From Clostridiaceae bacterium BRH_c20a (GTDB lineage: Bacteria; Bacillota; Peptococcia; Peptococcales; BICA1-8), in the NCBI GenBank assembly GCA_000961765.1, contig LADT01000019.1, forward strand, positions 7,110 through 71,109: a stretch of DNA of 64,000 bases. Reading direction: 5' to 3'. The notes under the pieces are model-generated. The model searched no databases and was not told the origin of the DNA. It saw only the letters and a list, made by a program, of their open reading frames with translations. Both the position numbers and the translations under genes were made by a program. The first letter of the stretch is position 1, and every line of letters begins with the position of its first letter. Shown here piece after piece: positions 13,203-49,839 of the stretch.

Positions 13203-13248
13203 ACTAAAAAAGTTAGGGGTATCCCTAACTTTTAAATATTTTGTCAAA

Positions 13249-34682: not shown

Positions 34683-34764
34683 GAAAACAATATAGATTTC
34701 GCTGTGATGACACCAAAGGATTGTCAGACGCATAATTTTTACCCTTAAGGAGTTGTCAAGACAC

Positions 34765-35601
34765 ATGTATTTCAATAGATTTGTCAATATGAAGTGTGGA
34801 AATACTACGCTAAATTTGGGATCTAAAACCTATATCATGGGTATCTTAAATGTTACTCCTGATTCTTTTTCTGATGGCGGTGACTTCGCTGATGTAGAGA
34901 AGGCTGTAGCCCATGCTCATATAATGGTTCGGGAAGGGGCGGACATTATTGACATCGGCGGTGAATCGACCAGGCCGGGGTTTGAGGAAATTAGCGCTGA
35001 GGAAGAGCTGGAAAGGGTTTTGCCAGTACTAAAAAGGCTGATAAAGGAGATTGATGTGCCTATATCTGTTGACACCTATAAAGCAGAGGTGGCTAGAGAG
35101 GTTTTGTCGATAGGTGCTAATATAGTCAATGATCAATGGGGTTTAAAAAAAGACCCCAGTCTAGCTGAGGTAATAGCCCAATGGCAGGTTCCGGCCATAT
35201 TTATGCACAATCAGGCTGGAATTGAATATCAAAATGATATTTTAGAAGAAATTAAACTTTCCTTGCAAGAATCAATAGATATTGCTTTAGATGCAGGTGT
35301 CAGGAAGGAAAATATTATCCTAGATCCGGGGATTGGTTTTGGAAAAAACCCGGAGCAGAATATGGTTGTGATGGCCAGGCTCCATGAGCTAAATGAGTTA
35401 GGTTATCCAATACTCTTGGGTACTTCCCGCAAGTCTATGCTAGGAAAAATTTTAGATTTGCCTCCAAAAGATAGAATTGAGGGAACTGTGGCTACTACTG
35501 TGATGGGAATTATGCAGGGAATAGATATTGTGCGGGTACATGACATAAAAGAGAATTGGCGGGCAGCTAAGGTTACTGACGCCATAATAAGAAAGCATTG
35601 A
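34765..35601 (+). CDS. folP: dihydropteroate synthase
   Basis: MGILNVTPDSFSDGG, DIGGESTRPG, DPGIGFGK; start ambiguous (TTG 34753, ATG 34765 or ATG 34789). Confidence 0.93.
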   Translation: MYFNRFVNMKCGNTTLNLGSKTYIMGILNVTPDSFSDGGDFADVEKAVAHAHIMVREGADIIDIGGESTRPGFEEISAEEELERVLPVLKRLIKEIDVPISVDTYKAEVAREVLSIGANIVNDQWGLKKDPSLAEVIAQWQVPAIFMHNQAGIEYQNDILEEIKLSLQESIDIALDAGVRKENIILDPGIGFGKNPEQNMVVMARLHELNELGYPILLGTSRKSMLGKILDLPPKDRIEGTVATTVMGIMQGIDIVRVHDIKENWRAAKVTDAIIRKH

Positions 35602-35610
35602 GGTAAAAAT

Positions 35611-35973
35611 ATGGATAAGATTTTTCTGAAAAATTTAGCTTTTTTTGGATTCCATGGAGTCTTGCAGGAAGAAAAAAATCTTGGGCAAAAATTTTTTGTT
35701 GATGTTGAATTAAGCTTGGACTTAAAAGAGGCCGGAGAAAGTGATAATGTCCAAGATACTGTAAGCTATGCTGATATATATCAATTAGTTAAAGATGTAG
35801 TATCAGACAATCGATTTAATTTGATTGAAGCTTTAGCGGAAAACATTGCCTTTGAAATTTTAAAATATGAAGAAATAACGGAAACAGTTGTCAGGGTACG
35901 CAAACCGGAGGCGCCTGTTGCTGGTATATTTGATTATTTTGGTGTGGAAATAAGGAGAAAAAGAAATGGCTAA
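35611..35973 (+). CDS. folB: dihydroneopterin aldolase
   Basis: 120 aa; LAFFGFHGVLQEEKNLGQKFFVDVEL, VSYADIY. Confidence 0.9.
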   Translation: MDKIFLKNLAFFGFHGVLQEEKNLGQKFFVDVELSLDLKEAGESDNVQDTVSYADIYQLVKDVVSDNRFNLIEALAENIAFEILKYEEITETVVRVRKPEAPVAGIFDYFGVEIRRKRNG

Positions 35974-36442
35974 GGCTTATTTAGGACTTGGCAGCAATCT
36001 AGGTGATAAAAAAACCAATGTAACAACTGCTTTAGAAATGCTTTATAAGAACCCGTTAATAGAAGTACTCAAAATTTCCTCCTTTTATGAAACGGAGCCT
36101 ATAGGCTTTAAGGAACAGGACTGGTTTTTAAATGTTGTTGTGAAGGTAGAGACTTTAGTAGAGCCATATAAGCTGCTTTCCTTTTGTCAGGCTATTGAAG
36201 ATCACCTTCAAAGAAAAAGACTTATAAGATGGGGCCCTAGAACTATGGATGTTGATGTCTTGCTTTATGAAAATTTTTCTTCTGAAGACCCCATATTAAC
36301 GATACCCCACCCGAGAATGACAGAACGGGCCTTTGTTTTAGTGCCCTTAGAGGAAATTGAACCAGATTTAGAAATAAAAGGGCAAAGAATTGGAGAGTTT
36401 TTAAATAAGTTAGAAGATGCTCATATAAAAAGAGTTGATTAA
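35966..36442 (+). CDS. folK: 2-amino-4-hydroxy-6-hydroxymethyldihydropteridine pyrophosphokinase
   Basis: 158 aa; YLGLGSNLGD, RWGPRTMDVDVLLY, HPRMTERAFVLVPL; overlaps folB by 8 nt. Confidence 0.93.
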   Translation: MAKAYLGLGSNLGDKKTNVTTALEMLYKNPLIEVLKISSFYETEPIGFKEQDWFLNVVVKVETLVEPYKLLSFCQAIEDHLQRKRLIRWGPRTMDVDVLLYENFSSEDPILTIPHPRMTERAFVLVPLEEIEPDLEIKGQRIGEFLNKLEDAHIKRVD

Positions 36443-36505: not shown

Positions 36506-37678
36506 TTGACCAGCGGCAATGTACATCGGTTAGAAATAAACGGTAGAGAAATTATCCTTATTGGGACAGCCCATGTTTCCAGAAAAAGTGTTGAAGAAGT
36601 TAAAGAGATAATTCAGGAAGAAAAACCTGATGCAGTTTGCGTAGAACTGTGTCAGTCCCGTTACCAATCAATCTCTGATGCTGATAAATGGAAAAATATG
36701 GACATCGTTAAGATTATTAAAGAAGGCAAAGCCTTGATGTTATTAATTAACTTAATTTTGTCCTCTTATCAAAAAAGATTAGCACGGCAGTTTGGTATTC
36801 AACCCGGTCAGGAGATGATTCAGGGTATTGAATCGGCAAATGAACTAGGAGCTACTCTTTGTTTAGCTGACCGGGATATTCAGACGACAATGCTCAGGTT
36901 ATGGAGGGGCATAGGTCTCTGGGGGAAATTCAAGCTGTTTTTCCAACTGATTTTAAGTATGTTTGTTGATGAAGAAGTAAGTGAGGAAGAACTGGAAAAA
37001 ATGAAAAGCCAGGATATGTTAACTGCAGCTTTAGATGAATTATCCCAGTCATTTCCTCTTTTTAAGGCTATCCTAATTGATGAAAGGGATAAATATTTAG
37101 CTCAGAAAATAAAAGAAGCACCGGGAAATAAGGTTATTGCCGTTTTAGGTGCCGGTCATGTTCCGGGGATAAAGAATGAACTATTCCATGACCATGACCT
37201 AGCTGAACTTTCGCGGGTACCACCTGCATCTAAAACAGCGAAGATAATAGGATGGAGTATTCCGGTAGTAATACTAATAATCATTGCTTCTACCTTCTCA
37301 GTTAGTAAGGCTGCAGGTATAGACCAAATGGTAAGCTGGGTTCTTTGGAATGGTTCTTTAGCAGCTCTTGGTACATTACTGGCTCTTGGCCATCCTCTTT
37401 CTATATTGACAGCATTTTTAGCTGCACCGATAAGCTCGTTAAGTCCTCTTCTAGCGGCGGGTTGGTTTGCTGGTCTTACTGAGGCTTTGATAAGAAAGCC
37501 AAATGTTCAGGATTTCGAGAACATGTCTGAGGATATTTATTCTTTCAAAGGTTTTTGGCGTAATAAGGTTACTCATATTCTTTTGGTAGTTGTATTTGCT
37601 AATTTAGGCAGCACCGTAGGTACCTTAGTAGGAGGAGCAGAAGTAGTAAGGCAGTTTATTAATACAGTTTTTGGATAA
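36506..37678 (+). CDS. TraB/GumN family protein
   Basis: 390 aa; GREIILIGTAHVSRKSVEEV, PDAVCVELC, GAGHVPG, C-terminal TM segments. Confidence 0.85.
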   Translation: MTSGNVHRLEINGREIILIGTAHVSRKSVEEVKEIIQEEKPDAVCVELCQSRYQSISDADKWKNMDIVKIIKEGKALMLLINLILSSYQKRLARQFGIQPGQEMIQGIESANELGATLCLADRDIQTTMLRLWRGIGLWGKFKLFFQLILSMFVDEEVSEEELEKMKSQDMLTAALDELSQSFPLFKAILIDERDKYLAQKIKEAPGNKVIAVLGAGHVPGIKNELFHDHDLAELSRVPPASKTAKIIGWSIPVVILIIIASTFSVSKAAGIDQMVSWVLWNGSLAALGTLLALGHPLSILTAFLAAPISSLSPLLAAGWFAGLTEALIRKPNVQDFENMSEDIYSFKGFWRNKVTHILLVVVFANLGSTVGTLVGGAEVVRQFINTVFG

Positions 37679-37700
37679 AGGACGATAGAGCATAGATGCG

Positions 37701-37838
37701 AATTTAGAAATGTAGAATGTAGAATGTAGAAATTTAGAATTTAGAATTTAGAATGTAGAATGAAAAATTTAAAATGAAGAAAACACGAACCCTTTAGGGA
37801 CACATTCATAGACCATAGACCATAGATTATAGAGATAG
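37701..37838. repeat. composite heptamer-array element (TAGAATK array - unique core - CATAGAC array)
   Basis: 8 TAGAAT(G/T) units (37705-37762), core GAAGAAAACACGAACCCTTTAGGGACACAT (37776-37805), CATAGAC-type units (37807-37838). Confidence 0.95.
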
Positions 37839-37909: not shown

Positions 37910-37969
37910 TTGCAAATTCATAGAAAATGTCGTAAAATGGCATTATAGGTAAAACTACTCATCAGTGAG
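37910..37969 (+). promoter_or_regulatory. promoter plus conserved CTCATCAGTGAG box upstream of the permease
   Basis: TTGCAA-N17-TAAAAT with spacer ..AAATGTCG; CTCA-TCAG-TGAG inverted repeat 20 nt after the -10. Confidence 0.6.
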
Positions 37970-38027
37970 GAGGAGGGTAGCTGTTAACTGGGAATACCTT
38001 ACACATAAAAAATAAGGGGGTTTCAAT

Positions 38028-39419
38028 GTGGATACTCAAGTTACTTTAGGATCATTGCACTTTATTTATTTTTCAGTAGTAATTTTAGTTATTGGTGTTA
38101 TGGTAGCCAGAAGAGATACTGTGCTGCCCTGTATTATTGGTTTATTTGTTATTGGCCTTGCCGCCAAAGGTTCATTGGTGGGTGCAGTCCAGGTTATGTT
38201 TAATGCTTTAATGGCCGCCGGTGGAGAATTTTTAGGACTTATTGTTGTTATTTCCCTTGTAGTTGGAATGAGTAAAGCCATGGCTGATTCAGGAACCGAT
38301 TACCTTATTATGCGCCCTGCAGCCAAAATTATGGTTAATAGAAATATTGCCTTTTTCGTGACGGGTATTGCGATGCTTATTGTTTCTTGGTTTGTATGGC
38401 CTTCTCCTGCAGTTGCACTGATAGGTGCATTATTACTGCCTGTTGCTCTTAGAGCTGGTTTACCTGCTATTGGTGCGGCAGTTGCAATGAACATTTTTGG
38501 TCATGGAATTGGTTTATCCAGTGACTGGATTATCCAAGGTGCTCCTGGAATTACGGCAAGTGCAGCTGGCCTCGCCGATGCCACTAAGGTAACCTATCCA
38601 GGTGCTCCCCTTTACTTAGTTATGGCTGTTGTAACTGTTGCAGTTGCCTTCTATATGTTAAGAAAAGATTTAAATACAAATGCCCATCTTTATCAAACTG
38701 AACTGGCCGGTGCTACTAAGGATGATGAGAATGAAAAACGTAAATTTAGCACTAGTTCTTATATATTTGCCGTATTAATACCACTTGTTTTTGCCATCGA
38801 TGTGGTAGCAATGTTAATGTTAGACCTCAAAGGCGGAGATGCTACAGCTTTAATTGGTGGTACTGCCCTAGCAATAACAGCAGTTTTAGCTATAGCTCAG
38901 TTTAAAGGTGAATCTTTAGAGAAGGTTACTGACTATGTCCGAGACGGCTTTATGTTTGGTATCAAGATATTTGCCCCTGTTATTGTTATTGGTGCCTTCT
39001 TCTTCTTAGGTAGTGAAGGAACAGCAAAGGCAATACTTGGGGAAAATGCAACTGGACTGTTAACAGATTTAGGAAGCTATTTAGCTCAGAATGCTCCACT
39101 AAGTAAAGCGCCAGTGGCATTTATAACCATAATAATTGGCGGTATTACTGGTCTTGATGGATCCGGATTTTCCGGTTTGCCATTAGTGGGCTCTCTAGCT
39201 CAAACCTTTGGTACTGCTATCGATGGTAATGTAGGAGTTCTAGCTGCCCTTGGACAAATTAGTTCCGTTTGGGTAGGCGGAGGTACTATTATTCCTTGGG
39301 GCTTAATCCCTGTAGCTGCTATTTGTGGTGTTGAGCCTATGGAATTAGCCCGTCGAAACTTTATCCCGGTTATGATTGGTTTTCTAGTCACAACCATATT
39401 TGCAATCTTCTTAATCTAA
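38028..39419 (+). CDS. multi-pass permease (ion-transporter-superfamily-like), substrate unknown
   Basis: 463 aa, GTG start with SD AAGGGGG; about 12 hydrophobic segments and one central hydrophilic loop. Confidence 0.8.
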   Translation: MDTQVTLGSLHFIYFSVVILVIGVMVARRDTVLPCIIGLFVIGLAAKGSLVGAVQVMFNALMAAGGEFLGLIVVISLVVGMSKAMADSGTDYLIMRPAAKIMVNRNIAFFVTGIAMLIVSWFVWPSPAVALIGALLLPVALRAGLPAIGAAVAMNIFGHGIGLSSDWIIQGAPGITASAAGLADATKVTYPGAPLYLVMAVVTVAVAFYMLRKDLNTNAHLYQTELAGATKDDENEKRKFSTSSYIFAVLIPLVFAIDVVAMLMLDLKGGDATALIGGTALAITAVLAIAQFKGESLEKVTDYVRDGFMFGIKIFAPVIVIGAFFFLGSEGTAKAILGENATGLLTDLGSYLAQNAPLSKAPVAFITIIIGGITGLDGSGFSGLPLVGSLAQTFGTAIDGNVGVLAALGQISSVWVGGGTIIPWGLIPVAAICGVEPMELARRNFIPVMIGFLVTTIFAIFLI

Positions 39420-39482
39420 CTTCAGTTGCGATGACTTGATCAGTATTGTATAATTATCTTGTTTTAAATTTAAAAATTATTT

Positions 39483-40217
39483 ATGTGGAGAGTGGGTGTT
39501 TTGCAAACACCACGGGAAAGTCATAGATTTCATATTCTAGAAGTAATTGAAAAAAGTGAAGCGCCCTTAGGTGCCAACCAGATAAAAAAGGAACTGTCCA
39601 GTTTAGGGTTAAATATTAGTGAAGCAACTGTTGGCAGGGTTTTATTCGGTCTGGATCAGGAGACCCTAACTAAAAAAGAGGGCTTTAAAGGCAGGATTTT
39701 AACAGAACAAGGGCAAAATGCTTTACGGGAAATGCGTATTCAGCGGGAAAGAAAAGAATATGGTGAAGAGTTTTTTAAAGTTTTAGATAGTACCTCTGAA
39801 GCCGAATTAGTCGAGATTCTAGTTGCCAGGAGAGTTATTGAGAGTCAATTAGCTAGGATGGCAGCATTGCATATTACACCAGAAATTGCCCAGGAAATGC
39901 AAGATACCATCGATCGACAGGCAAAGTATAGTAAAAAGGGTATTGCGGCCGAATATGATGTCCAGTTTCATAAGCTTATTTCCCGGTCAGCAGGTAATAA
40001 AGTTCTTGATGCTATGCTGGATCTAATCAGGCAAGATGGGCAACTCACTCCTGCTTTAGAGTATATTCGCAAAAAGGTTAAAAGTAGTATAATTGTGGAC
40101 CATAAGAAGATTATGGAGGCCATTATTAATAAAGATCCTAATACCGCTGAAAAGGCAATGATTGAGCATATGGATAATTTAATTCGAGATGTAAATAAAT
40201 ACTGGGGTAAGATGTAA
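39483..40217 (+). CDS. winged-helix plus FCD (FadR C-terminal type) domain transcriptional regulator
   Basis: 244 aa; the C-terminal half (LVARRVIESQLARMAAL..FHKLISRSAGNKVL..DHKKIMEAI) fits the FCD domain; start may be TTG 39501. Confidence 0.7.
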   Translation: MWRVGVLQTPRESHRFHILEVIEKSEAPLGANQIKKELSSLGLNISEATVGRVLFGLDQETLTKKEGFKGRILTEQGQNALREMRIQRERKEYGEEFFKVLDSTSEAELVEILVARRVIESQLARMAALHITPEIAQEMQDTIDRQAKYSKKGIAAEYDVQFHKLISRSAGNKVLDAMLDLIRQDGQLTPALEYIRKKVKSSIIVDHKKIMEAIINKDPNTAEKAMIEHMDNLIRDVNKYWGKM

Positions 40218-40344
40218 GAACCCCGAGAAATGATTAGTGTCTAATTAAAAATTAAAGATTTATTTTTTAGAACCCTGCAGTTTTGCGGGGTTCTTTAGGT
40301 TTTAAAAAAATATGGTTTATTATAATTATTTTTGAAAATTATGA

Positions 40345-40403
40345 CTTGAAAAATGTTGGTAAATGTCATAAAATGATAGTAGAAAAATCTGCTCATCAGT
40401 GAG
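40345..40403 (+). promoter_or_regulatory. paralogous promoter plus CTCATCAGTGAG box upstream of the catabolic operon
   Basis: TTGAAA-N17-TAAAAT with spacer ..AAATGTCA; identical 12-nt CTCATCAGTGAG box 19 nt after the -10. Confidence 0.6.
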
Positions 40404-40424
40404 TAGCGAAATTGAGGTGTATAC

Positions 40425-40865
40425 ATGGTAGCAATAGATCCTTATAAAGCAGGAATGTTTAAAACTGATCCTTATGTGGTTAAAAGAAGTATAAAGGGTG
40501 AATTGGTAGTTGTTTTGGATGGTTATATGGAAAATAGAGGGCTTAAGCTTATCGCACCTATTTCCCGCTGTATTTTAAAAAATGAAATCCATGAATTGCT
40601 TTTTACCGATGAAATTGATGCAGGTCCAGGAATGAGCGTTGACAAAATTTCCTACCTAGGTTTTTTTGAAGTTGAACAGGGTAGTGTGATGGTGTCTGGT
40701 GATGAAGTATTCTTAAACAATCAACTTATCGGTCATATTGCCGGTTTTGATGAAACCCATATGCCAAATCATCTTAATATTATTATGAAGCGCCAAAATA
40801 GGTTAACGGGAGTAGAATTGGGTTGTAGTATTGGTGATACAATTACATTTCAAAAGCCTAAATAA
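40425..40865 (+). CDS. small protein of unknown function (faint glucitol-IIA-like beta-barrel pattern)
   Basis: 146 aa; GHIAGFDETHMPNHLNIIM..IGDTITF loosely recalls SrlB-type GHxTLxFDG..PG..L.F. Confidence 0.55.
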   Translation: MVAIDPYKAGMFKTDPYVVKRSIKGELVVVLDGYMENRGLKLIAPISRCILKNEIHELLFTDEIDAGPGMSVDKISYLGFFEVEQGSVMVSGDEVFLNNQLIGHIAGFDETHMPNHLNIIMKRQNRLTGVELGCSIGDTITFQKPK

Positions 40866-40966
40866 TAAAGTATATATTTTTTACTAGTTCATTGATAATA
40901 ATTATCGTTATCATTGTTCAGTATTTAAAAGTTGAATATTTAAATATTCTGAAAGGAGGTGTAATA

Positions 40967-41428
40967 GTGAGTTTTGAGGAACGAATTAAAGAATTGGGAC
41001 TTGAGTTGCCGGAAGCACCTAAACCGGTAGCAGCATATGTACCTGCTGTTTTAGTTGATAAATATATCTATACTTCTGGGCAAATTCCTTTTGTTAATGG
41101 TGAATTAAAGTTTAAAGGAAAAATAGGCCAAGAGCTAAACGAGCAAGAAGGATATGAAGCTGCAAAGGTTTGTGCTTTAAACTGTTTAAGTGTAATAAAA
41201 AGTGTTATAGGTGATTTAGACAAAATAGACCGGGTTATAAAAGTAAATGGCTTTGTAGCCAGTGCGGCAGGTTTTAATATGCAGCCTAAGGTAATAAATG
41301 GTGCATCAGAGTTAATAGGTCAAATATTTGGTGATCAAGGACAGCATGCCCGCGCAGCGGTAGGAGTAAATGAGCTGCCTTTAGATTCTGCCTGTGAGGT
41401 TGAGATGATAGTAAAGATTAAAGGTTAA
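40967..41428 (+). CDS. RidA/YjgF-family enamine/imine deaminase
   Basis: 154 aa from GTG 40967 (SD AAGGAGG 7 nt upstream); YTSGQIPF, ARAAVGVNELPLDSACEVEMIV. Confidence 0.85.
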   Translation: MSFEERIKELGLELPEAPKPVAAYVPAVLVDKYIYTSGQIPFVNGELKFKGKIGQELNEQEGYEAAKVCALNCLSVIKSVIGDLDKIDRVIKVNGFVASAAGFNMQPKVINGASELIGQIFGDQGQHARAAVGVNELPLDSACEVEMIVKIKG

Positions 41429-41590
41429 GGTTAAGGTTGAGGTTGAGATTAAGGTTGTCTATAGTCTATAGTCTATAGTCCATAGTCCATAGTCCATAGT
41501 CAGGACCACTAATAGTAATAAATAAATGATTAGTCACTAGCCACGGTACTGTAATTCACCAGTCACCAGTCACTAGTAACTAGTCACTAA
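41421..41590. repeat. composite array element upstream of the PLP gene
   Basis: AAGGTT-type hexamers x6 (41421-41456), GTCTATA x3 + GTCCATA x3 (41457-41498), TCACCAG TCACCAG TCACTAG TAACTAG TCACTAA (41556-41590). Confidence 0.95.
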
Positions 41591-41611
41591 AATAAAAGGA
41601 GGAAATGAAAA

Positions 41612-43072
41612 ATGAGTCCAAAATATAAATTTCAAATGTATAAAGAGCTGCATGCCAAAACTGGGGAGATATATGCCGATGCTGCTAAAGCTGCAGACGA
41701 AATAGGTATACCTAAAGATATTAGAGGAACTTTTGGTTTAACTGGTGCTATCTCAGGTTGTCCCGCACCTTTAAGAAGGGATATTTTAGAGGCAGGGGAA
41801 AAAGGTGCTGTTGAAGTAATACCTCTTGCTAAGTTAATGGACGAGATTAGGGAAGTTGTAAAAGATGTCTATGGCGATGAGTGGGAAGCTGCTGCTACAA
41901 GTACTTGTGAAGCTACTCTTTGGACTTCCTTTGATGCGTTGTTTACACCTCCCATGCAGGGCAGGGGTGATAATTACAGAGCCAGGTACATAGCTCCCTA
42001 TGAAAAGCATTTACATCACCAGGGTGGTTATGGTCGACCATTTCCCGGAAAATATAAGGATATGTTTGCTGACAGAGGCTCAACAGCTGGAGAACTAGGC
42101 TTCCACGGCAAAAGGCAAAATAATCTTGATGCGGTATTTGTTCCTTTAGAAGGAGCTAAATATGAAGTTCACGGTATTAAGCAGTGGCCAGTACCTTTGC
42201 TGTCTGAAGTTGATCCCGAAGCTTCCATTGAAAGTATTGCTTTACATGCGGAGATTCACGAAGCTATGCTTACAGGCTTCACCTCCTTAGGCTATCCATC
42301 CCCAGGTTATGGATATAGTGCTCAGGATGAAGAGGGTACTCCTTTACTGTGCAAATATATTGCTGAGTTAGCTCATTCCTACAATGTTCCTTATGTTATA
42401 GATAATGCTTGGGGATTGCCCTTTGTTGGTATTAATCCTGCTAAAATTGGCTGTGATGTAATTACATATAGTATGGATAAGGCTACAGGCGCTGCCACTA
42501 GCGGTTTGATTATTGGTAAAGAAGAACCAATGGTACAAATTCGCAGAGCTTTAGGCATGCATGGTGACCGTTGGGGAACCCCATCCTCCTATGGCAAAGC
42601 TGCTTATGTAACCTTTGACCCAGGTAAAGAGGCTCTCTTAACTCAGCTCCAGGCTCTGAAGGTATTAAGAGATACACCAGAAGTATTGACAAAACCCGTT
42701 GATGACCTATATGAAATAGTTGTAGAGGAATTTAACAATATTCCGGCGAAGTTTAAAGACGGAATTAAAATTACTAAGGTTTATAATTCTACTGCAATTG
42801 AAGTTAACTATGAAGGTACTTGGAAAAATGGACAAATGGGTATTCCTATTTTCTCTATTGAAGATATGTATTCAGGAACAAACCTCTTACAGACTGGTAT
42901 GACTAAATTCGGTGTTATACCAACAATTGCCTATGATGCAAACATCTATATTTCACCTGGTTTAGGTACCTGTGATGAAGAAGGACAGTTAATTCCTGAA
43001 AAGACTCGTTATGCTGTTAAAGCTTTAGTTAAGCTAATTGAAATAGTTTGCAAACATGCAGGAGTACTTTAA
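41612..43072 (+). CDS. SelA-like fold-type-I PLP-dependent enzyme
   Basis: 486 aa; VIDNAWG then ITYSMDKATGAATSGLIIGKEE (Lys290, nt 42479-42481) parallels the SelA SGDKLLGGPQAGIIVGKKE Schiff-base region. Confidence 0.7.
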   Translation: MSPKYKFQMYKELHAKTGEIYADAAKAADEIGIPKDIRGTFGLTGAISGCPAPLRRDILEAGEKGAVEVIPLAKLMDEIREVVKDVYGDEWEAAATSTCEATLWTSFDALFTPPMQGRGDNYRARYIAPYEKHLHHQGGYGRPFPGKYKDMFADRGSTAGELGFHGKRQNNLDAVFVPLEGAKYEVHGIKQWPVPLLSEVDPEASIESIALHAEIHEAMLTGFTSLGYPSPGYGYSAQDEEGTPLLCKYIAELAHSYNVPYVIDNAWGLPFVGINPAKIGCDVITYSMDKATGAATSGLIIGKEEPMVQIRRALGMHGDRWGTPSSYGKAAYVTFDPGKEALLTQLQALKVLRDTPEVLTKPVDDLYEIVVEEFNNIPAKFKDGIKITKVYNSTAIEVNYEGTWKNGQMGIPIFSIEDMYSGTNLLQTGMTKFGVIPTIAYDANIYISPGLGTCDEEGQLIPEKTRYAVKALVKLIEIVCKHAGVL

Positions 43073-43078
43073 TTAATA

Positions 43079-43281
43079 ACTGGTGACTAGTTGCTAGTTG
43101 CCAGTTGCTAGGTAAACATAGTGCTGCAGTGCTACAGGTAAACCTAGGTTGAGGATTTGCTTCGCTAGGCTAAGGTTTCGCTTCGCTAGGTTAAGGTTGA
43201 GAAAAAGGCTTTAATATTTATCTTTTTAACCTTAACCTTAACCTTAACCTTAACCTTATTTATAAATTTAACCTTAGCCTT
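43079..43281. repeat. composite array element downstream of the PLP gene (mirror order)
   Basis: ACTGGTG ACTAGTT GCTAGTT GCCAGTT GCTAGG (43079-43113, reverse orientation of the TCACYAG family); GCTTCGCTAGG + AAGG words; AACCTT x5 (43228-43257); AACCTTAGCCTT (43270-43281). Confidence 0.95.
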
Positions 43282-43356
43282 GGGGCAAGCTTGGGCACTG
43301 TCACACTTGCTCATTTAAATTAAGTTTTCAAAATATTTCCACAAGGAGGAGAAAAG

Positions 43357-44637
43357 ATGCCGAGAGTTGTGATTGTAGGTGGCGGTTGGTCCGGTGTTGC
43401 TGCTGGTCTAGCTGCTAGGAAAGCAGGTGCTGAAGTATTAGTTTTGGAAAGGGCAGATATGCTTTTAGGGACCGGCTTAGTCGGTGGAATAATGAGAAAT
43501 AATGGCCGTTTCGTGGCTACTGAAGAATCAATTGCTATGGGTGCCCATGAACTTTTTGATGCTACAGAAGAAACAGCTCGCCACAAAAACATGGAATTTC
43601 CGGGGCATAAACATGCTACTCTTTATGATGTAGCAAAAATAGAACCGGCTGTAAGAAAAAAACTTACTGAAGCTGGCGTGGAATTTAAACTTAAGCAAAG
43701 AGTAAAAGATGTAAAAATGAATGGTACTGCCATTACTGCTGTGATTGATGAACAAGGCAGAGAATATGAGGCAGATGTATTTGTTGAAACTACTGGTACT
43801 GCCGGACCTCAAGGTAACTGCTTGAAATACGGCAATGGTTGTGCTATGTGTATATTGCGCTGTCCAACCTTTGGTCCTAGAATTGCTTTAGCTACTAAGT
43901 GTGGAGTAGAAGAATTCATGGGCAAAAAGGCTGATGGTACCTTTGGAGCCATGAGTGGTTCCTGCAAATTGCATATGGAATCCCTTTCTGAAGAGATTCA
44001 AAAACAGCTGTACACTAAGGGTGTTGCAGTAGTGCCTATTCCTAGGGAGCTGCAAAAGGAAGGGGCCTTAGAGTCTAAAGCCTGCCAGCAGTATGCTTTA
44101 GCTGAATTTAAAGAAAATGTTATTCTTTTAGATACAGGTCATGCAAAATTAATGTCTCCTTATTATCCTTTGGATACTCTACGGAGAATTCCCGGTTTTG
44201 AAAACGCCCGTTATGAGGATCCTTATTCCGGCGGTATAGGTAATTCCATGCGTTATTTGGCGTTATCCCCACGGGATAATTTCCTGAAGACTAAAGGCTT
44301 AGATAATCTTTTCTGTGGTGGAGAAAAGGCTGGTCTCTTAGTAGGTCACACCGAGGCTATTGTTACCGGTAGCTTAGCCGGTCATAATGCAGTACGTTAT
44401 GCTTCAAAAAAAGAGTTAGTAGAGATTCCGACTTCTTTAGCTATTGGTGATGCTATTAATTATGTCAAAGAGCAAATGACCACGGAAGAAGGCCTTACTA
44501 AGAAATATACCTTCTCCGGTTCAGTATACTTTGAGCGCATGAGGGAGCTAGGTCTTTATACAACTGATGTGGATGCTATTCATAAGCGGGTAGCTGAAGC
44601 TGGTATGACTGGACTATATAACAAAAAAGTGAACTAA
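43357..44637 (+). CDS. FAD-dependent oxidoreductase, GidA/TrmFO-like
   Basis: 426 aa; VVIVGGGWSGVAAGLAARKAG dinucleotide fold; C-terminal FCGGEKAGLLVGHTEAIVTGSLAGHNA resembles the GidA-type AGQ..G..GY.EA..G..AG. Confidence 0.75.
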   Translation: MPRVVIVGGGWSGVAAGLAARKAGAEVLVLERADMLLGTGLVGGIMRNNGRFVATEESIAMGAHELFDATEETARHKNMEFPGHKHATLYDVAKIEPAVRKKLTEAGVEFKLKQRVKDVKMNGTAITAVIDEQGREYEADVFVETTGTAGPQGNCLKYGNGCAMCILRCPTFGPRIALATKCGVEEFMGKKADGTFGAMSGSCKLHMESLSEEIQKQLYTKGVAVVPIPRELQKEGALESKACQQYALAEFKENVILLDTGHAKLMSPYYPLDTLRRIPGFENARYEDPYSGGIGNSMRYLALSPRDNFLKTKGLDNLFCGGEKAGLLVGHTEAIVTGSLAGHNAVRYASKKELVEIPTSLAIGDAINYVKEQMTTEEGLTKKYTFSGSVYFERMRELGLYTTDVDAIHKRVAEAGMTGLYNKKVN

Positions 44638-44677
44638 TTGTAAAAAAAATTATAATCTGTAGGTACTGTAGCTACAG

Positions 44678-44705
44678 AAAGACCTGCGGAGCAGGTCTTT
44701 CTTAT
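44678..44705 (+). terminator. Rho-independent terminator
   Basis: AGACCTGC-GGA-GCAGGTCT followed by TTTCTT. Confidence 0.7.
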
Positions 44706-44763
44706 AATTAATAGGGACTTTATCTTAATTAAATTTTTAATATAAATTTCCGTTTTTAATTTA

Positions 44764-44800
44764 AACAAAATATTCTTATTCTTCCGTAGGATATTTTGTT
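44764..44800. promoter_or_regulatory. 10-bp perfect inverted repeat upstream of the mutase operon
   Basis: AACAAAATAT-N17-ATATTTTGTT ending 11 nt before ATG 44812. Confidence 0.5.
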
Positions 44801-44811
44801 CATATGGGGGT

Positions 44812-45063
44812 ATGACTGTGACTGATGCTTTAAAGAGAGTAATAGATGCTTTAGACGTAGAAACTTTCTTAGTCTGTGAGAGTGAAGAAGAGGGTAAAAA
44901 GTTAGCATTAGCTATGATGAAAAACCTGGGCTTTAAGGATGTAGATCTGGTATTTATTGAATTTATTGGTTCGGGAGCAAGAATTAGGGCTAGGGCCTAT
45001 ATGCACCGACCAGGGGATCAATATGGGTGGTTATTTGCTGAGGAGGTAAAAGGTAATGACTAA
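44812..45063 (+). CDS. 83-aa protein of unknown function, translationally coupled to the mutase
   Basis: ORF with SD TGGGGG; its stop overlaps the next start in ATGACTAA (8-nt overlap). Confidence 0.65.
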   Translation: MTVTDALKRVIDALDVETFLVCESEEEGKKLALAMMKNLGFKDVDLVFIEFIGSGARIRARAYMHRPGDQYGWLFAEEVKGND

Positions 45064-46873
45064 AAAGGTTTTGTTATCCCCTTTAGACCCCGTTCATGAT
45101 ATAGGATTAAAAATGATAAAGAGGGGTCTTAATGAAGCCGGTCTAGAAACAAAATTACTGCCTCCTGATACTCCGGCGGAAGAAATTATTCGTATTTGTA
45201 TGGAAGGAAGCTTTGATACCCTGCTTTTAAGCCGCACTTTAGGTTATGGAGTTGCTGAATTGTTAGCCCGCTTTGTAGATTTGGCGGATGCCGCAGGCTT
45301 GAGAGATAATGTCCGTATAGGTATTGGTGGTATGGCTGTTCGGCCGGAAATTGCAGCAGAATTAGGCTTTGATGCTGGATTTGGCCCGGGAACTACAGTG
45401 GAGGAAGCGGTTGCTTTTGTGGAGGGGAGGGAATATAGTCCCCAAGAAAATGAAATAAAAAAGGAAAAGGTGGATATTGCCTCCCCTTATACGTACCACT
45501 ATAAGAATCAAAAGATAGGTAGTTTATTAGAAAAAATAACCATGCAGATTATAGCCTGGGCTGCTAATAAAACATCTCCGGGGGTAGAAAGGGCTAAACT
45601 TAGAGAAAATGATTGGGATTATCAGGCCTTTCTAAAGAAAGAGGATGACAGTAAGTTTTATAAACACTATGCCCAATTATGTGATCAAATTCCAAAGGAT
45701 TTTTATCTCAAGGGAGTAATGCATCCTAAAACTAGAGAGCTCTCTAAGGATGAACTTATCAGTCTAAATACCTATATTAGTAATATGCAAAAACAGATGA
45801 AGGTTAAAAAGCTGCAGCATACTAAGAAGCTGCCTATAGTTTGGAACCAGTATGGCACGGGATGTCCCTTTATGGATATTGCTCATGTTAAGGCTAGTGA
45901 AGGATGGGGTGCTGACGGTGTAGTTCATTTTGACCCTTCATGGGGGGCTAGAACCGAAGGCTTTTTAAACGGTAACCTCACTCATCAGGAGGATGGTACA
46001 GTTATCACTCCTAATAATTTATATAGAATTCATAGGATGTTGGAAAAATCCACTTTATGGCAGGTAAGGGCTCACCGAGGTTTAAATACAGCTGAAACCG
46101 TTGTTTTGGCCGGTAAAATAGGTGCAGACTTAACTAAGATTAATATCTGTTATGGGTCGTTGGCGGCCGGTACAGATCCTGCCCGTTTAACTATAGATGC
46201 TTTTCATGCCATCAAATATGCTGCTAAATATAAAATGCCCTTTGATGTTGTTACAAATGAGGAATTAACCGGAGTTCCAGCTTATAAAGCTTTTGCCGGG
46301 ATGCTGATAGTAGCAGATCTGGCGGTAAGATTAGGAGCTAAGCCTATACTGCAGCCTTTATTTGCCTTCTCACCGGAGGTAATGGTAAGTGGACAGATGG
46401 ATGATAACTATATTGATTTTAATGCCGCCAAAATATATGCATTGAGAAGTATAGTTGATGCTCCAATTTGGCCAGGTGCACCTATCGGGTTTTTAACCCA
46501 GACCGAAGATAGGGTGCAATCCTCTCTATCTACAGCTCTGCATGCACTTTTAGCGACAAGCTTAGGTGTTGATGCAATATCCATTGCTTCTGCTGATGAA
46601 GCATACTCAGGAGGACCTATAAGTATACCTTCTAAAATTGATACCTTAAGAGGTGTGGAGGAAAGCTTCAGATTCTTAGGTCTTGCAGGAATAAAACCTA
46701 CAGAAAAGGCTCAAATCTGGCAGGAACAGATGGTTATAGGGATTGAAAATGTTCTTTCTCAGATTGCAGAACAGGGGGACTTCGTTCAATCATTATATGA
46801 TGGTGTCTTAGGAAGCAAAGAAGAAGGGGCCTTCCCTGGTAGGGCCGGATATAATACCGTTCGGGAAGAATAA
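45056..46873 (+). CDS. cobalamin-binding-domain fusion protein, putative B12-dependent mutase
   Basis: 605 aa. Residues 1-125 parallel glutamate mutase S (KKVLLSPLDPVHDIGLKMI; LLLSRTLGYG; GIGGMAV; GFGPGTTVEEAVAFV). In the ~470-aa C-terminal domain, WGADGVVHFDPSWGAR, WQVRAHRGLNT and SADEAYSGGPISIPS faintly parallel MutE segments. Confidence 0.65.
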   Translation: MTKKVLLSPLDPVHDIGLKMIKRGLNEAGLETKLLPPDTPAEEIIRICMEGSFDTLLLSRTLGYGVAELLARFVDLADAAGLRDNVRIGIGGMAVRPEIAAELGFDAGFGPGTTVEEAVAFVEGREYSPQENEIKKEKVDIASPYTYHYKNQKIGSLLEKITMQIIAWAANKTSPGVERAKLRENDWDYQAFLKKEDDSKFYKHYAQLCDQIPKDFYLKGVMHPKTRELSKDELISLNTYISNMQKQMKVKKLQHTKKLPIVWNQYGTGCPFMDIAHVKASEGWGADGVVHFDPSWGARTEGFLNGNLTHQEDGTVITPNNLYRIHRMLEKSTLWQVRAHRGLNTAETVVLAGKIGADLTKINICYGSLAAGTDPARLTIDAFHAIKYAAKYKMPFDVVTNEELTGVPAYKAFAGMLIVADLAVRLGAKPILQPLFAFSPEVMVSGQMDDNYIDFNAAKIYALRSIVDAPIWPGAPIGFLTQTEDRVQSSLSTALHALLATSLGVDAISIASADEAYSGGPISIPSKIDTLRGVEESFRFLGLAGIKPTEKAQIWQEQMVIGIENVLSQIAEQGDFVQSLYDGVLGSKEEGAFPGRAGYNTVREE

Positions 46874-46874
46874 T

Positions 46875-47894
46875 ATGGCCGTTATACTAGGTATTGCGGG
46901 AACAGCTAAAAATACAGGCAAAACCACTACTACCAAAGCGATTATGGACCAAGTACAACAGGATAAGAACAGGTTATTGGGCTTAACTAGCATTGGGTAT
47001 GACGGTGAGGATATGGATAATATTACCGGATTACCCAAGCCAAAAATTGAGGTCTGGCCCGGGGCACTTGTAGCTGTAGCTGAGCGAAGTCTTGAGGTTA
47101 GTTCAGCTCAAATTCAATTGCTGGAAAAAACCGATATAGCTACACCCTTGGGTAAAATAATTCTGGGAAAAGTTATTAAAAGTGGCACACTTCTTATCGC
47201 TGGACCAAATAAGAGTAAGGAACTGCGCCGGATTTTACCTCTCTTACAGCATTATGGGGCCAATTTTATAATTGTTGACGGAGCTTTAAACCGGATAGCG
47301 CCCATGGTTGAGGTAAATAGTTTAATACTAGCTACTGGAGCGGCTAAAACATCTAACCTAACTGATCTTGCTTGGGAAACAAAACATCTTGTGGAAATCC
47401 TCCAATACCCAGTTTTCCCTAAAACTGAGAATATGGTCAATGTGGATTCGATACTGGACATCCAAGCTGCTCAAAGGCTAACTGCTATTCTATTAAATAA
47501 TCAAGGAGTAGTAATTAATGGTGTAATCAGCTCACAGGGCCTTGAGTACTTAATTCAGGCAGGGGAAGAGCTAAAGGGAAAAATGCTGATTTTACCTGAT
47601 GCCATAAAGCTTTTAGTCTGTGGTGAGGTTAGACATATTTATAACCTTCTTACTCGCTTAAAAAATTTTGGTCTGGAAATAGGGGTAAAAAAAGAAGTTC
47701 GGGTGACGGCTCTTACAGTAAACCCCTATTACCCCCAATTCCGCTTTTCCTCTAATGATTATCAAGCAGCATATGTGGACCAGGGACTACTCTATGAAAG
47801 CATCACGAACAGTGTCAATATCCCCGTATTTGATATAGTTGAAGAAGGGGGCCATAAACTCTACGAAGTAATAGTGGAAAAAGAAATATATTGA
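46875..47894 (+). CDS. BioD/CobQ/CbiA-type P-loop ATPase-like protein
   Basis: 339 aa; starts 1 nt after the mutase stop; GIAGTAKNTGKTTT fits GTxxxxGK[ST] of dethiobiotin synthetase/CobQ; FIIVDGALN parallels the EGAGG strand. Confidence 0.55.
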   Translation: MAVILGIAGTAKNTGKTTTTKAIMDQVQQDKNRLLGLTSIGYDGEDMDNITGLPKPKIEVWPGALVAVAERSLEVSSAQIQLLEKTDIATPLGKIILGKVIKSGTLLIAGPNKSKELRRILPLLQHYGANFIIVDGALNRIAPMVEVNSLILATGAAKTSNLTDLAWETKHLVEILQYPVFPKTENMVNVDSILDIQAAQRLTAILLNNQGVVINGVISSQGLEYLIQAGEELKGKMLILPDAIKLLVCGEVRHIYNLLTRLKNFGLEIGVKKEVRVTALTVNPYYPQFRFSSNDYQAAYVDQGLLYESITNSVNIPVFDIVEEGGHKLYEVIVEKEIY

Positions 47895-47913
47895 TATTGA
47901 GCAATGAAAACTT

Positions 47914-47937
47914 AAAAAACGCCCTAGGGCGTTTTTT
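47914..47937. terminator. bidirectional terminator
   Basis: AAAAAACGCCC-TA-GGGCGTTTTTT between convergent genes; overlaps the minus-strand stop codon. Confidence 0.85.
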
Positions 47938-48751
47938 AAGTTGCATCATTATTTACGCAAATAAAGGTTTTACGGTTTTTCTCCTGCCAGACATAAGAAA
48001 GAAGTTTTTTCTGAAGTGCCGGTGTATTTATACTGATTATAGTATCATAATGGAGTTCTTTAATCTCGGTTAGCTTTTCGAAAGAAATTACTTTATCGGC
48101 AGCGGTAGACAATAACTGATTAACGATTTTATGAGAAAAAGGGCCTATTACTTTAACTGTTTTACCTTTTGCTTTCAACTCATCAATTAAGGATTTTACC
48201 ATCCCCAGCCAAAAACCATCAACACAGACAATTACATCCTGCATCTTACCCCAAGGCAGCTCTGGTAATGCTGGTCCTTGAGGTTTTAATTCAAGTATTG
48301 TTCCTTTTGCTACCAGAGGGCCGTATTTCAAAGGAATCTCATAATTAGTATCCATAATGATAAGAGAAATCAAGTTTTGCTCTGGTACAACTTTTGAAAT
48401 TACACCGGACATAGCAATGGTTTTATTAAAATTTTGGGTAGTAATTTTGACAAATTGAAAGGCTTGAATATTTTGCAAATGACTAGGAATAAAGCAGACA
48501 AGCTTGAGAAAATCCTTTTCACTTATTTTCTGCAGTACTTCAATCTTATCGTTAGAAGTTTTGGATAATTGAGAACCATTGGTTAGATAGGACTGATAAA
48601 TACACATTCCTGCCCAGTTTAGGCTGCAATCACAGCTTTGGCCATGATTTAGAATATTGCATACGGGGCAGTCCCCAGTAACAGCAGCAGCACAGGGGCA
48701 TTTCTCAGTTGCTGCATCCAGGCAGGCCTTTTCTACAGGTAAAGTATTCAT
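47936..48751 (-). CDS. Cys-rich protein with possible ferredoxin-reductase-like C-terminal part
   Basis: 271 aa; 8 Cys within residues 10-50 (CLDAATEKCPCAAAVTGDCPVCNILNHGQSCDCSLNWAGMC); remainder weakly PyrK/FNR-like. Confidence 0.5.
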   Translation of the reverse strand: MNTLPVEKACLDAATEKCPCAAAVTGDCPVCNILNHGQSCDCSLNWAGMCIYQSYLTNGSQLSKTSNDKIEVLQKISEKDFLKLVCFIPSHLQNIQAFQFVKITTQNFNKTIAMSGVISKVVPEQNLISLIIMDTNYEIPLKYGPLVAKGTILELKPQGPALPELPWGKMQDVIVCVDGFWLGMVKSLIDELKAKGKTVKVIGPFSHKIVNQLLSTAADKVISFEKLTEIKELHYDTIISINTPALQKKLLSYVWQEKNRKTFICVNNDAT

Positions 48752-48841: not shown

Positions 48842-49270
48842 TTACCTTAACAGCACCTGTTTAGAGAGCCTTTGGCCTGTGGCGCACCAGTTAGCGAAGT
48901 GTTCGCAGTTATTAAAAATAAAATTATATCCGTCAAAATTCCCACCTACTTGACTCAAAGCTCTATTTCTAACATCTTCTCGTGTAAATGCATATTTTAC
49001 ATTTTCTTCAATACACAAGTCATCATTTAGTAAGAAGCTTTGGAGGGAAGTTCTTTGAATCCAAGCTGATTTTTGGATAAGGAATCTATCGCCCCGAAAA
49101 TGAACAGCAGTACCGTCACCTATATCTATTCCATAGTGTCTGTAGCTTGGGAATCCATCCTCAAACTGCTGCCAAAAAATCCTTTTGTGACAACTCTTAT
49201 AATAATTTAATACCAGTTGCTGCTCTGGCTTTCGGAGATGCCTGACTACATAAATTACGTCCCCCTTCAT
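48842..49270 (-). CDS. LRAT/NlpC-P60-like thiol acyltransferase/hydrolase domain protein
   Basis: 142 aa; HYGIDIGDGTAVHF and NNCEHFANWCATG (His / NCEHF Cys motifs). Confidence 0.75.
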   Translation of the reverse strand: MKGDVIYVVRHLRKPEQQLVLNYYKSCHKRIFWQQFEDGFPSYRHYGIDIGDGTAVHFRGDRFLIQKSAWIQRTSLQSFLLNDDLCIEENVKYAFTREDVRNRALSQVGGNFDGYNFIFNNCEHFANWCATGQRLSKQVLLR

Positions 49271-49285
49271 TATTTTTTCGCCCCT

Positions 49286-49780
49286 TTAAAATAAAATATT
49301 ATTGATGACTCCGCAGGATAGCCTTTTTCCTGCATCTCCGGCAGGCTGAGTGCGGTAATCATCGGGATTTTGATGAACGATTACTGCTTTGCCAATGATA
49401 TCACGGACGCTAAATTTGTTGGTATAAAAGCTAATAAAAGCATAGCCATTATTAGAAAATAAAACAGGAAAGTCTCCGGCATGATTTCCATGGGGTTGAT
49501 TAAACGGGTTCCAGTGCCCGCCGGCAGCCTGAAAGGGATTATCCGGGTCGCCTATTAAGCAGATCCCGTTTTCATGAATATGAAAACCGTGGGGACCTAC
49601 AGGGTCACCATTGTTTTGGGCAGGTTGGTATGGGGGAAGGCCGAATACCTCTGTATAAACCAAAACTCCGCCTATTACATCCTGAAAGATTACTGTGCCT
49701 CTAATCTGAGGAGCAAGGGGCCCTCCCCTGAGATTTGCTCTTGCTATATTTGTTAAGTATATAATTATTCCTCCTTTCAC
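49286..49780 (-). CDS. sodC: Cu/Zn superoxide dismutase family protein
   Basis: GPHGFHIHENGIC, GGHWNP, HGNHAGDFP, VIVHQNPDDY..GDAGKRLSCGVI; start codon uncertain (see findings). Confidence 0.9.
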   Translation of the reverse strand: MKGGIIIYLTNIARANLRGGPLAPQIRGTVIFQDVIGGVLVYTEVFGLPPYQPAQNNGDPVGPHGFHIHENGICLIGDPDNPFQAAGGHWNPFNQPHGNHAGDFPVLFSNNGYAFISFYTNKFSVRDIIGKAVIVHQNPDDYRTQPAGDAGKRLSCGVINNILF

Positions 49781-49800
49781 TCAGAATCATGTCAATAGTT

Positions 49801-49839
49801 AATAGACCATAGACAATAGACCATAGACCATAGGCTATG
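49801..49839. repeat. CCATAGA-type heptamer array
   Basis: AATAGACCATAGACAATAGACCATAGACCATAGGCTATG between two minus-strand genes. Confidence 0.9.

Follow-up and report, generated by a model that had tools for sequence, protein, structure and literature searches.

Reviews of the field describe just two adenosylcobalamin (AdoCbl)-dependent aminomutases, one for lysine and one for ornithine (PMC3958899, PMC9105233). In lysine 5,6-aminomutase (5,6-LAM), Lys144-beta forms the internal aldimine with pyridoxal 5'-phosphate (PLP), Ser238 is located at the pyridine nitrogen, and Tyr263 stacks on PLP; further contacts are provided by Asn299 and, for the phosphate group, by Arg184, Arg268, and the Gly187-Gln188-Ser189 loop (PMC3958899). 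Here we analyzed a gene cluster at positions 37910–48751 of a 64,000-nucleotide stretch of contig LADT01000019.1 from Clostridiaceae bacterium BRH_c20a, hereafter the window. The cluster is centered on a 605-amino-acid (aa) B12-binding protein and had been proposed in an earlier reading of the DNA (the original prediction) to be an undescribed cobalamin-dependent catabolic locus. Sequence comparison and structure prediction led us to conclude that its core represents a third and highly divergent branch of the AdoCbl aminomutase superfamily in which the domains are rearranged. The cluster is conserved widely among anaerobic bacteria and probably marks an undescribed breakdown pathway.

The 605-aa protein (45056..46873, plus strand) is predicted to consist of a KamE/OraE-type B12 domain fused to a KamD-like TIM barrel. 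Residues ~1–125 form the B12-binding Rossmann domain (PF02310, E 2.8e-11), whose best matches in a sequence search of the PDB were KamE (E 1e-12 to 1e-13) and OraE (E 3e-11). When the family was aligned with KamE using hhalign (probability 98%, E 4e-14), His14 was placed opposite the cobalt ligand His133. The ligand motif, DPVHDIG, exceeds DxHxxG by one residue and is shared by all 25 sequences compared. The corrinoid-binding fold claimed by the original prediction is thus borne out by both the Pfam match and the ligand alignment.

Residues ~135–605 constitute the barrel. An AlphaFold 2 (AF2) model of the whole protein (mean predicted local distance difference test score (pLDDT) 76, predicted template modeling score 0.73) was compared with the PDB using Foldseek, and the top match was KamD (1xrs_A, E 3.7e-15, template modeling (TM) score 0.63; also 8t0v_A and 9q1a_C). 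OraE (3kow_B, E 5.7e-9), IcmF, and GlmE (E 3.4e-7, TM score 0.48) were also found, so that KamD ranks above the other two enzymes, OraE and GlmE, with which a comparison of the C-terminal domain had been proposed. The hhalign comparison of the family with KamD (E 8e-5, probability 61%) is anchored by GAD...GA(T/R)TEGF, (S/R)GL...E, and YG. Addition of OraE to the KamD template gave the same alignment with a probability of 28%, and in permissive mode the alignment was colinear to the C-terminus.

By sequence search alone, the barrel is almost invisible. No Pfam or NCBIfam family matched residues 135–605 even at E values up to 10, and the PDB sequence search matched the B12 domain only. Among curated models, the B12 region alone matched NF052385 and NF040743, far below the cut-offs, and the barrel had no match; the family was not recognized by NF052384 (Lys_5_6_mutase), NF040743 (OraE), or OAM_alpha. 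The Pfam OAM_alpha model and PF06368 (the MutE barrel, Met_asp_mut_E) weakly matched two (E 0.13) and one (E 0.041) of the 25 members, respectively. A phmmer search of the barrel against 1.84 billion representative sequences listed one full-length match (614 aa, 50% identity) and otherwise shorter pieces. More than 1000 homologs of the 605-aa protein exist; the best 120 listed are about 600–620 aa long and 65–96% identical to it, and the names carried by 43 of these 120 are all generic or misassigned. In databases, the proteins go by "hypothetical protein" or "cobalamin B12-binding domain-containing protein", or else they bear transferred names that mislead, for example "beta-lysine 5,6-aminomutase beta subunit", "methylmalonyl-CoA mutase cobalamin-binding domain", and "KamB".

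Two further genes appear to belong to the enzyme. The gene of an 83-aa protein (44812..45063, plus strand) has a stop codon that overlaps the start of the 605-aa gene, and the gene of a 339-aa P-loop protein (46875..47894, plus strand) starts two bases past the stop of the latter. The coupling of these three genes, proposed originally, is therefore supported by open reading frames (ORFs) that overlap or abut, and the 83-aa gene is predicted to be translationally coupled to the B12 enzyme gene. The 83-aa protein itself had no family match at E values up to 10, and a profile search of the PDB gave no useful match. Ten of 21 members of its family, on the other hand, match the OAM_dimer model (PF16554; best E 3.5e-4, with none reaching the gathering score), and hhalign placed the protein onto residues 42–73 of KamE with a low probability (21%). 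It is likely the equivalent of the KamE/OraE dimerization domain, that is, a putative small subunit.

The 339-aa protein had been assigned to the BioD/CobQ type. We rejected this assignment in favor of KamB homology, since the protein scores 216 bits against NCBIfam NF052386 (KamB; cut-off 210) and shares 28% identity over its full length, and the Walker A motif, with authentic KamB of Acetoanaerobium noterae; it is predicted to be a homolog of the KamB-type reactivase subunit. KamC, a MutS-like ATPase, was not found in the window, and GlmL was likewise absent. Taken together, the homologies of the B12 domain, the barrel, the 83-aa protein, and the KamB-like protein indicate that the core is a remote relative of KamDE and OraSE. 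KamB-like proteins ~43% identical to that of the window are also encoded without a nearby B12 enzyme in two loci (L088, 10001–11032; L089, 10001–11023; loci are cited by L numbers), where the layout DUF1015–acetyltransferase–KamB-like is conserved near dnaB/dnaI and mraZ. In L089, two lysine-2,3-aminomutase-like radical SAM genes are close to the lone KamB-like gene. The KamB-like family is therefore not confined to contexts of B12-enzyme reactivation.

The difference from the described aminomutases is most marked at the PLP site. In the canonical enzymes, the PLP lysine lies 11 residues past the ligand histidine (Lys144-beta in KamE, Lys629 in OraE), and no such lysine is conserved in the new family: the KamE Lys144 loop falls in an eight-residue deletion in the hhalign alignment with KamE, and K22, which is opposite OraE Lys629, is variable across the family (K in eight members, R in six, A in seven, and also N, H, G, and S). 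On the barrel side, where the alignment is of moderate confidence throughout, KamD Arg184 is replaced by the invariant D293. The GQS phosphate loop is inside a nine-residue deletion between the conserved GAD and GA(T/R)TEGF anchors. Ser238 is replaced by the invariant R341, within the invariant motif RAHRGLN, and Arg268 by the invariant A371. Among R184, GQS, S238, Y263, and R268, the sole contact kept is Tyr263, retained as Y366; of five PLP contacts that can be aligned, four are replaced. The canonical aminomutase PLP site thus appears to be gone. Because the lysine loop and most of the PLP contacts are missing, the rearrangement is probably not a classical PLP-assisted amino shift.

These features can be set against three reference systems. 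For KamDE, we used the proteins of Acetoanaerobium/Clostridium sticklandii and Thermoanaerobacter tengcongensis (PDB 1XRS, 8T0V, and 9Q1A), and the clusters kce-kdd-kamA-kamB-kamC-kamD-kamE and ord-ortAB-oraSE-orr of A. noterae and Fusobacterium vincentii served for gene-content comparison. The new system resembles KamDE in its His-on B12 Rossmann domain (the best sequence match) and its TIM barrel (the best fold match), in the retained PLP-stacking tyrosine, in a putative small dimerization-type module, and in the KamB-type gene directly downstream. In contrast to KamDE, the B12 domain is N-terminal to the barrel, the putative dimerization domain forms a protein of its own (83 aa), the KamD hidden Markov model (HMM) does not detect the barrel, the Lys144-beta loop is deleted, and R184, G187–S189, S238, and R268 are replaced or deleted. 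KamC, KamA, Kdd, Kce, and Kal are absent, and the neighbors are instead a SelA-like PLP enzyme, RidA, a GidA-like flavoprotein, and a DUF6917 protein. OraSE (PDB 3KOW) is the second-best match in both fold and sequence, and there too the small-subunit gene is directly upstream of, and coupled to, the gene of the large B12 subunit. However, the order in OraE is barrel, dimerization domain, and B12 domain, which is reversed here; OraS (121 aa) is not an OAM_dimer module; Lys629 is unconserved; the accessory protein of OraSE is GlmL-like and not KamB-like; and Ord, OrtA, OrtB, and Orr are absent from the new cluster. Glutamate mutase GlmS/GlmE (PDB 1I9C and 6H9E) also combines a His-on B12 domain with a TIM barrel and acts on an amino acid without PLP, so that a functional analogy is possible if the new enzyme is PLP-independent; the structural match is weaker, and methylaspartase and GlmL are absent. 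The source records of L083, L084, and L085 are the PLSDB entries NZ_CP154629.1 and NZ_CP084075.1; PLSDB files the 2.6-Mb A. noterae and 2.1-Mb F. vincentii replicons as "plasmids", nearly unannotated, and it is on these replicons that the canonical lysine and ornithine fermentation clusters of the comparison (L083 and L085) are encoded.

The original prediction held that the locus matches no textbook AdoCbl pathway. This is correct for the partner genes, as none of Kdd, Kce, Kal, Ord, OrtA, OrtB, Orr, methylaspartase, GlmL, MeaB, and KamC is found among the ten proteins, but not for the mutase, which is remotely related to lysine 5,6- and ornithine 4,5-aminomutase. The ten ORFs of the cluster are all present at the coordinates claimed, and the family guesses (FCD, RidA, SelA-like PLP enzyme, GidA-like flavoprotein, and B12-binding protein) proved essentially right in Pfam and NCBIfam scans.

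In order to examine the conservation of the gene set, a scan of one genome per species was carried out, which gave 79 loci, and the window proteins were run against them by tblastn; co-occurrence was counted in the 51 loci in which the B12 gene is flanked by 8 kb or more on either side. All 51 contain the 83-aa gene, always directly upstream of the B12 gene. The PLP enzyme was found in 49, DUF6917 in 46, the GidA-like flavoprotein in 45, the P-loop protein in 42, RidA in 41, the FCD regulator in 30, and the permease in 21. Except for a Cys-rich protein, the window genes share the strand of the B12 gene in these loci, and about 30 gene orders occur. The co-occurrence of the core genes in 41–51 of 51 loci on the same strand but in about 30 orders shows that the grouping is not due to chance, and the coherent unit of adjacent genes proposed originally is real. 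The hosts are several classes of Bacillota, Candidatus Adiutrix, and a Treponema; among them are Peptococcaceae, Desulfosporosinus, Desulfotomaculum, Sporomusa, Pelosinus, heliobacteria, Tepidanaerobacter, Thermovorax, and Halothermothrix. The nearest relative of the window is the metagenome-assembled genome (MAG) "Peptococcaceae bacterium BICA1-8". Five minimal loci (L041, L047, L060, L063, and L071) contain just the regulator, the 83-aa gene, the B12 gene, and the PLP enzyme, which suggests that the tightest functional partner of the mutase is the 486-aa PLP enzyme. Whole-cluster paralogs, two or three per genome, were observed in L006/L007 (one MAG), L028/L037 (one contig, ~17 kb apart), and L038. 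The copies within one genome are ~65–80% identical to each other, suggesting subfamilies with different substrates.

The 486-aa PLP enzyme (41612..43072, plus strand) is tentatively placed in the SelA/DgaE/SepCysS/SufS group of fold type I by weak HMM matches and by an AF2 model searched with Foldseek. The HMM matches are all sub-threshold and confined to residues ~240–315: DgaE (E 8.7e-6; 24.9 bits against a cut-off of 385), Aminotran_5 (E 3.6e-5), and SelA (E 8.6e-3; 15.6 against 22.8 bits), together with a weak match to the Cys/Met family. The model (pLDDT 82) has a generic fold type I, and the top Foldseek match was SelA (3wcn, E 3.9e-12), followed by SufS, SepCysS, MJ0158, and Cap15. K290 is invariant in the motif YSMDKATG (S-x-D-K type) and is the probable Schiff-base lysine. 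The active-site stretch YSMDKATG...GLIIGKEE resembles those of SelA and DgaE (D-glucosaminate-6-phosphate ammonia-lyase). Although it shares this active-site region, the enzyme is 120 residues longer, and phosphotransferase-system and aldolase partners are absent. The SelA/DgaE group works via aminoacrylate- or enamine-type intermediates, which RidA proteins hydrolyze, so that the adjacent RidA fits.

The RidA/YjgF-family protein (153 aa, 40967..41428, plus strand) matches PF14588 (E 6e-26, 91 bits) and PF01042 (E 2e-16, 60 bits), both above the cut-offs. One of its arginines aligns with Arg105 of E. coli RidA, which is required for imine hydrolysis, and the protein is a probable enamine/imine deaminase. 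Its ORF opens at 40892; the start supported by a ribosome-binding site is the GTG at 40967, after a GGAGG site, and most likely represents the gene start. The GidA/TrmFO-like flavin adenine dinucleotide protein (426 aa, 43357..44637, plus strand; PF01134, E 1.9e-32) matched MnmG/GidA and TrmFO only in a profile search of the PDB. Four cysteines (C155, C162, C165, and C169) form an invariant motif, Cys-x6-Cys-x2-Cys-x3-Cys, that possibly binds an Fe-S cluster. In ~10 loci, a second flavoprotein paralog is found beside a PyrK-like protein of 319 aa that carries a 2Fe-2S motif (Fer2_3 at the C-terminus). The 146-aa protein (40425..40865, plus strand), originally listed as unknown, can now be given a family name, Pfam DUF6917 (PF21891, E 3.1e-48). 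It carries the invariant D/E/H-rich motif GFDETHMPNHLN, and a profile search of the PDB gave no useful match.

The regulator (39483..40217, plus strand) combines an FCD domain (E 3.2e-24, 86 bits) with a winged helix that scores as HTH_12 of the RNase R type (E 2.2e-13). As the DNA-binding domain is recognized as HTH_12 and not as PF00392, the protein belongs to an atypical GntR/FCD subgroup; the same make-up recurs beside the cluster in L087, L090, and L091. The polytopic 463-aa permease (38028..39419, plus strand), a probable substrate importer, showed no Pfam, NCBIfam, or PDB relative even with 16 aligned homologs at E values up to 10, and elsewhere it is replaced by Dpp/Opp-type ATP-binding cassette (ABC), EamA, or other transporters. 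Other genes recur in the surroundings of the cluster. A ProC-like NADP Rossmann protein was found in 14 loci, and genes for a four-subunit 2-oxoacid:ferredoxin oxidoreductase are no more than 10 kb away in ~7 loci. This oxidoreductase was noted in L036, L053, L058, L087, and L091, and in one clade it follows the cluster directly. In L087, the oxidoreductase genes (11031–14028) are directly 3' of the KamB-like gene. In L091, a sigma-54 regulator is followed by a Leu/Val-type amino-acid dehydrogenase, a 2-oxoacid:ferredoxin-type oxidoreductase, and a phosphotransacylase (Ptb).

The neighborhood in the Treponema sp. MAG (L086, 1–21000) is of a different kind. There, a reduced cluster is located amid genes of the peptidoglycan-recycling type: an LD-carboxypeptidase (Peptidase_S66), an M14 peptidase, a MurQ-like SIS protein, and an Opp-type ABC transporter. 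These neighbors may point to a substrate derived from murein, or their presence may be coincidental. We refrained from naming a substrate from the neighbors, namely those in Treponema, the oxidoreductase, and the Leu/Val dehydrogenase with Ptb, because they are too sporadic.

From these observations, we lean towards the view that the cluster is a substrate-inducible utilization operon built around a new lineage of AdoCbl radical isomerase, with rearrangement, PLP-dependent elimination, and hydrolysis by RidA as successive steps. The permease, or an ABC or EamA transporter elsewhere, would import a small carboxylate compound, most likely an amino acid or a derivative, which the FCD regulator would sense. 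The 83-aa and 605-aa proteins share homology and fold with KamE and KamD and may assemble into an enzyme that corresponds to KamE plus KamD, split and fused anew. As in other members of the superfamily, Co–C homolysis would generate a 5'-deoxyadenosyl radical that drives a 1,2-rearrangement of the substrate; given the loss of the canonical site, this would be either a PLP-independent migration or a reaction with PLP bound differently. The KamB-like protein would exchange damaged cofactor. The SelA/DgaE-like PLP enzyme would then, most likely, catalyze α,β-elimination or deamination of the rearranged α-amino acid, as its family chemistry and gene linkage suggest, and RidA would hydrolyze the released enamine/imine to a 2-oxo acid. 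The GidA-like flavoprotein may carry out a redox reaction, aided in some genomes by a PyrK-like partner or a ProC-like NADP reductase, and DUF6917 may have an auxiliary or catalytic role. The 2-oxo acid could enter central metabolism, in some genomes perhaps via the adjacent 2-oxoacid:ferredoxin oxidoreductase. We infer the order of the steps, the catabolic direction, and the radical chemistry; the catabolic role and the amino-acid-like nature of the substrate are suggested by the regulator, the variable transporters, RidA, and the occasional 2-oxoacid:ferredoxin oxidoreductase neighbors.

Several points weigh against this scheme. The PLP enzyme could precede the mutase, for example as a racemase, and RidA could serve the flavoprotein instead of the PLP enzyme. 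None of RidA, the flavoprotein, and the reactivase is present in every locus, and the Treponema version comprises only DUF6917, the PLP enzyme, the 83-aa protein, the B12 enzyme, and the KamB-like protein. The hhalign probability linking the barrel to KamD is modest (28–61%) and applies to residues 255–384 only, and the invariant barrel lysines K361 and K411 could bind PLP in another manner. The catabolic role, moreover, is deduced from gene context.

A more far-reaching possibility, which we put forward tentatively, is that an AdoCbl enzyme with an aminomutase fold but without a built-in PLP site catalyzes a type of reaction new for this fold within a wholly new anaerobic pathway. The reaction would be a PLP-independent migration or elimination, or else a rearrangement partnered by the SelA-like PLP protein, and the pathway, which would include DUF6917, the Cys-motif flavoprotein, and the orphan permease, would act on a common, so far unassigned metabolite.

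It is rather unlikely, in our estimation, that the enzyme amounts to no more than a divergent form of lysine 5,6- or ornithine 4,5-aminomutase, or a close analog for another diamino acid such as 2,4-diaminobutyrate, with a classical PLP-dependent 1,2-amino shift followed by oxidative deamination by the flavoprotein, hydrolysis by RidA, and PLP-dependent cleavage. Such an enzyme would explain why KamD, KamE, and OraE are nearest in structure and sequence, why a KamB-like reactivase is present, why the PLP-stacking tyrosine is conserved, and why the permissive alignment with KamD stays colinear through the C-terminal segment; the ProC-like reductase of the 14 loci would also suit cyclic imines formed from amino-keto acids. 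The deletion of the PLP-binding lysine loop is difficult to reconcile with it, as is the replacement of both phosphate-binding arginines and the pyridine-N serine by the invariant D, A, and R. In addition, the KamD and OraE family HMMs are not reached, the domain order differs, and the Kdd/Kce/Kal and Ord/OrtAB/Orr genes are absent.

A biosynthetic or salvage cluster, for example for an unusual amino acid, a compatible solute, or a cofactor precursor, seems improbable. Conservation of 63–97% across classes is more typical of core metabolism, many loci show no dedicated transporter within 10 kb (the permease is found in 21 of 51), and the hosts include autotrophic acetogens and phototrophs. However, a regulator of the FCD type and importers of several kinds are repeatedly found beside the genes, RidA next to a PLP enzyme of the β-eliminating type indicates deamination, and a 2-oxoacid:ferredoxin oxidoreductase adjoins several loci. 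The two or three paralogous copies in some genomes are usual for substrate-specific catabolic modules. Finally, we regard it as very improbable that the 605-aa protein is a non-radical methyl-transfer corrinoid protein or B12-dependent sensor with functionally unrelated neighbors: the B12 domain alone also resembles methyltransferase corrinoid proteins (weak matches to MtgC, MtbC, 1y80, and 7xcn), but the attached KamD-like barrel is of the radical-mutase type, a KamB-type reactivase gene is translationally coupled, the cluster contains no MtxA/MtxB methyltransferase and no RamA-type activase, and the PLP enzyme is linked in 49 of 51 loci.

Within the limited collection of literature searched, we found nothing on DUF6917, on this gene set, or on a third AdoCbl aminomutase lineage, and no characterized pathway with the same gene set was found in the databases or literature searched. 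Since a corrinoid-binding fold is present as well, the original prediction of an undescribed locus stands. What is known is the principle of an AdoCbl radical enzyme with its reactivase in an inducible operon; what is new is the architecture, the partner set, and probably the cofactor requirement. The family would be a third lineage with more than 1000 members, an unusual domain layout, and an apparently different cofactor requirement, and it is accompanied by five conserved partners without functional assignment (DUF6917, the 486-aa PLP enzyme, the Cys-motif flavoprotein, the 83-aa subunit, and the permease). The hosts include cultivable organisms (Sporomusa ovata, Heliomicrobium modesticaldum, Desulfosporosinus, and Tepidanaerobacter), which makes the question directly testable. 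Once the substrate is identified, anaerobic metabolism would gain a B12-dependent reaction, and misannotations would be corrected.

The Cys-rich protein (271 aa, 47936..48751, minus strand), which converges on the end of the cluster, had been counted as a member of the unit. It was rejected as a core member, as it occurs in only five of the 51 loci, on the opposite strand every time, and it is probably accessory. Residues 8–102 weakly match PRK05802, and the N-terminal 90 aa are homologous to the 319-aa PyrK-like protein, an FAD/NAD/2Fe-2S electron-transfer type (32% identity over 91 aa); the similarity covers just the first 90 residues of the latter.

Some signals were observed between the genes. 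A terminator scan identified a strong terminator-like hairpin of 11 bp with 6 G-C pairs 3' of the regulator gene (40269..40294, plus strand), which is predicted to separate the permease–regulator pair from the enzyme genes. It is followed by a promoter-like site at 40346–40374, proposed from a consensus match only. In the spacer that separates the 83-aa gene from the flavoprotein gene, a perfect 12-bp hairpin, AGAAAGACCTGC gga GCAGGTCTTTCT, can be read from the sequence (44676..44702, plus strand). It escaped the terminator scan, as there is no T-run behind the hairpin; a weak terminator, an attenuator, or an RNA-processing site is possible. An Rfam scan of the window detected no riboswitch and no other RNA family.

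The flanking genes lie outside the unit. Upstream, three ORFs at 34753–36442 resemble folP, folB, and folK by eye, and a 390-aa ORF at 36506–37678 has, also by eye, a TraB-family look; no family search was made for either. The 390-aa ORF is syntenic in the closest relatives only (L004, L005, and L007). Downstream, on the minus strand (48842–49780), translation gives a 164-aa protein beside a 142-aa protein; the former contains HGFHIHENG, a motif typical of Cu,Zn superoxide dismutase.

Many intergenic spacers contain short tandem arrays of 6–7-base units, namely at 19232–19335, 37700–37826, 41421–41589, 43087–43258, 49793–49833, and 56442–56585, with the units AGGCTA/TAAGGT, GAATGTA, AAGGTT, GTCYATA, TCACTAG, TTAACC, ATAGACC, and AGACCAT. 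They are reminiscent of the short tandemly repeated repetitive (STRR) heptamers of cyanobacteria. The two arrays flanking the PLP-enzyme gene are approximately mirror images of each other (AAGGTT...TCACTAG and CTAGTTG...TTAACC).

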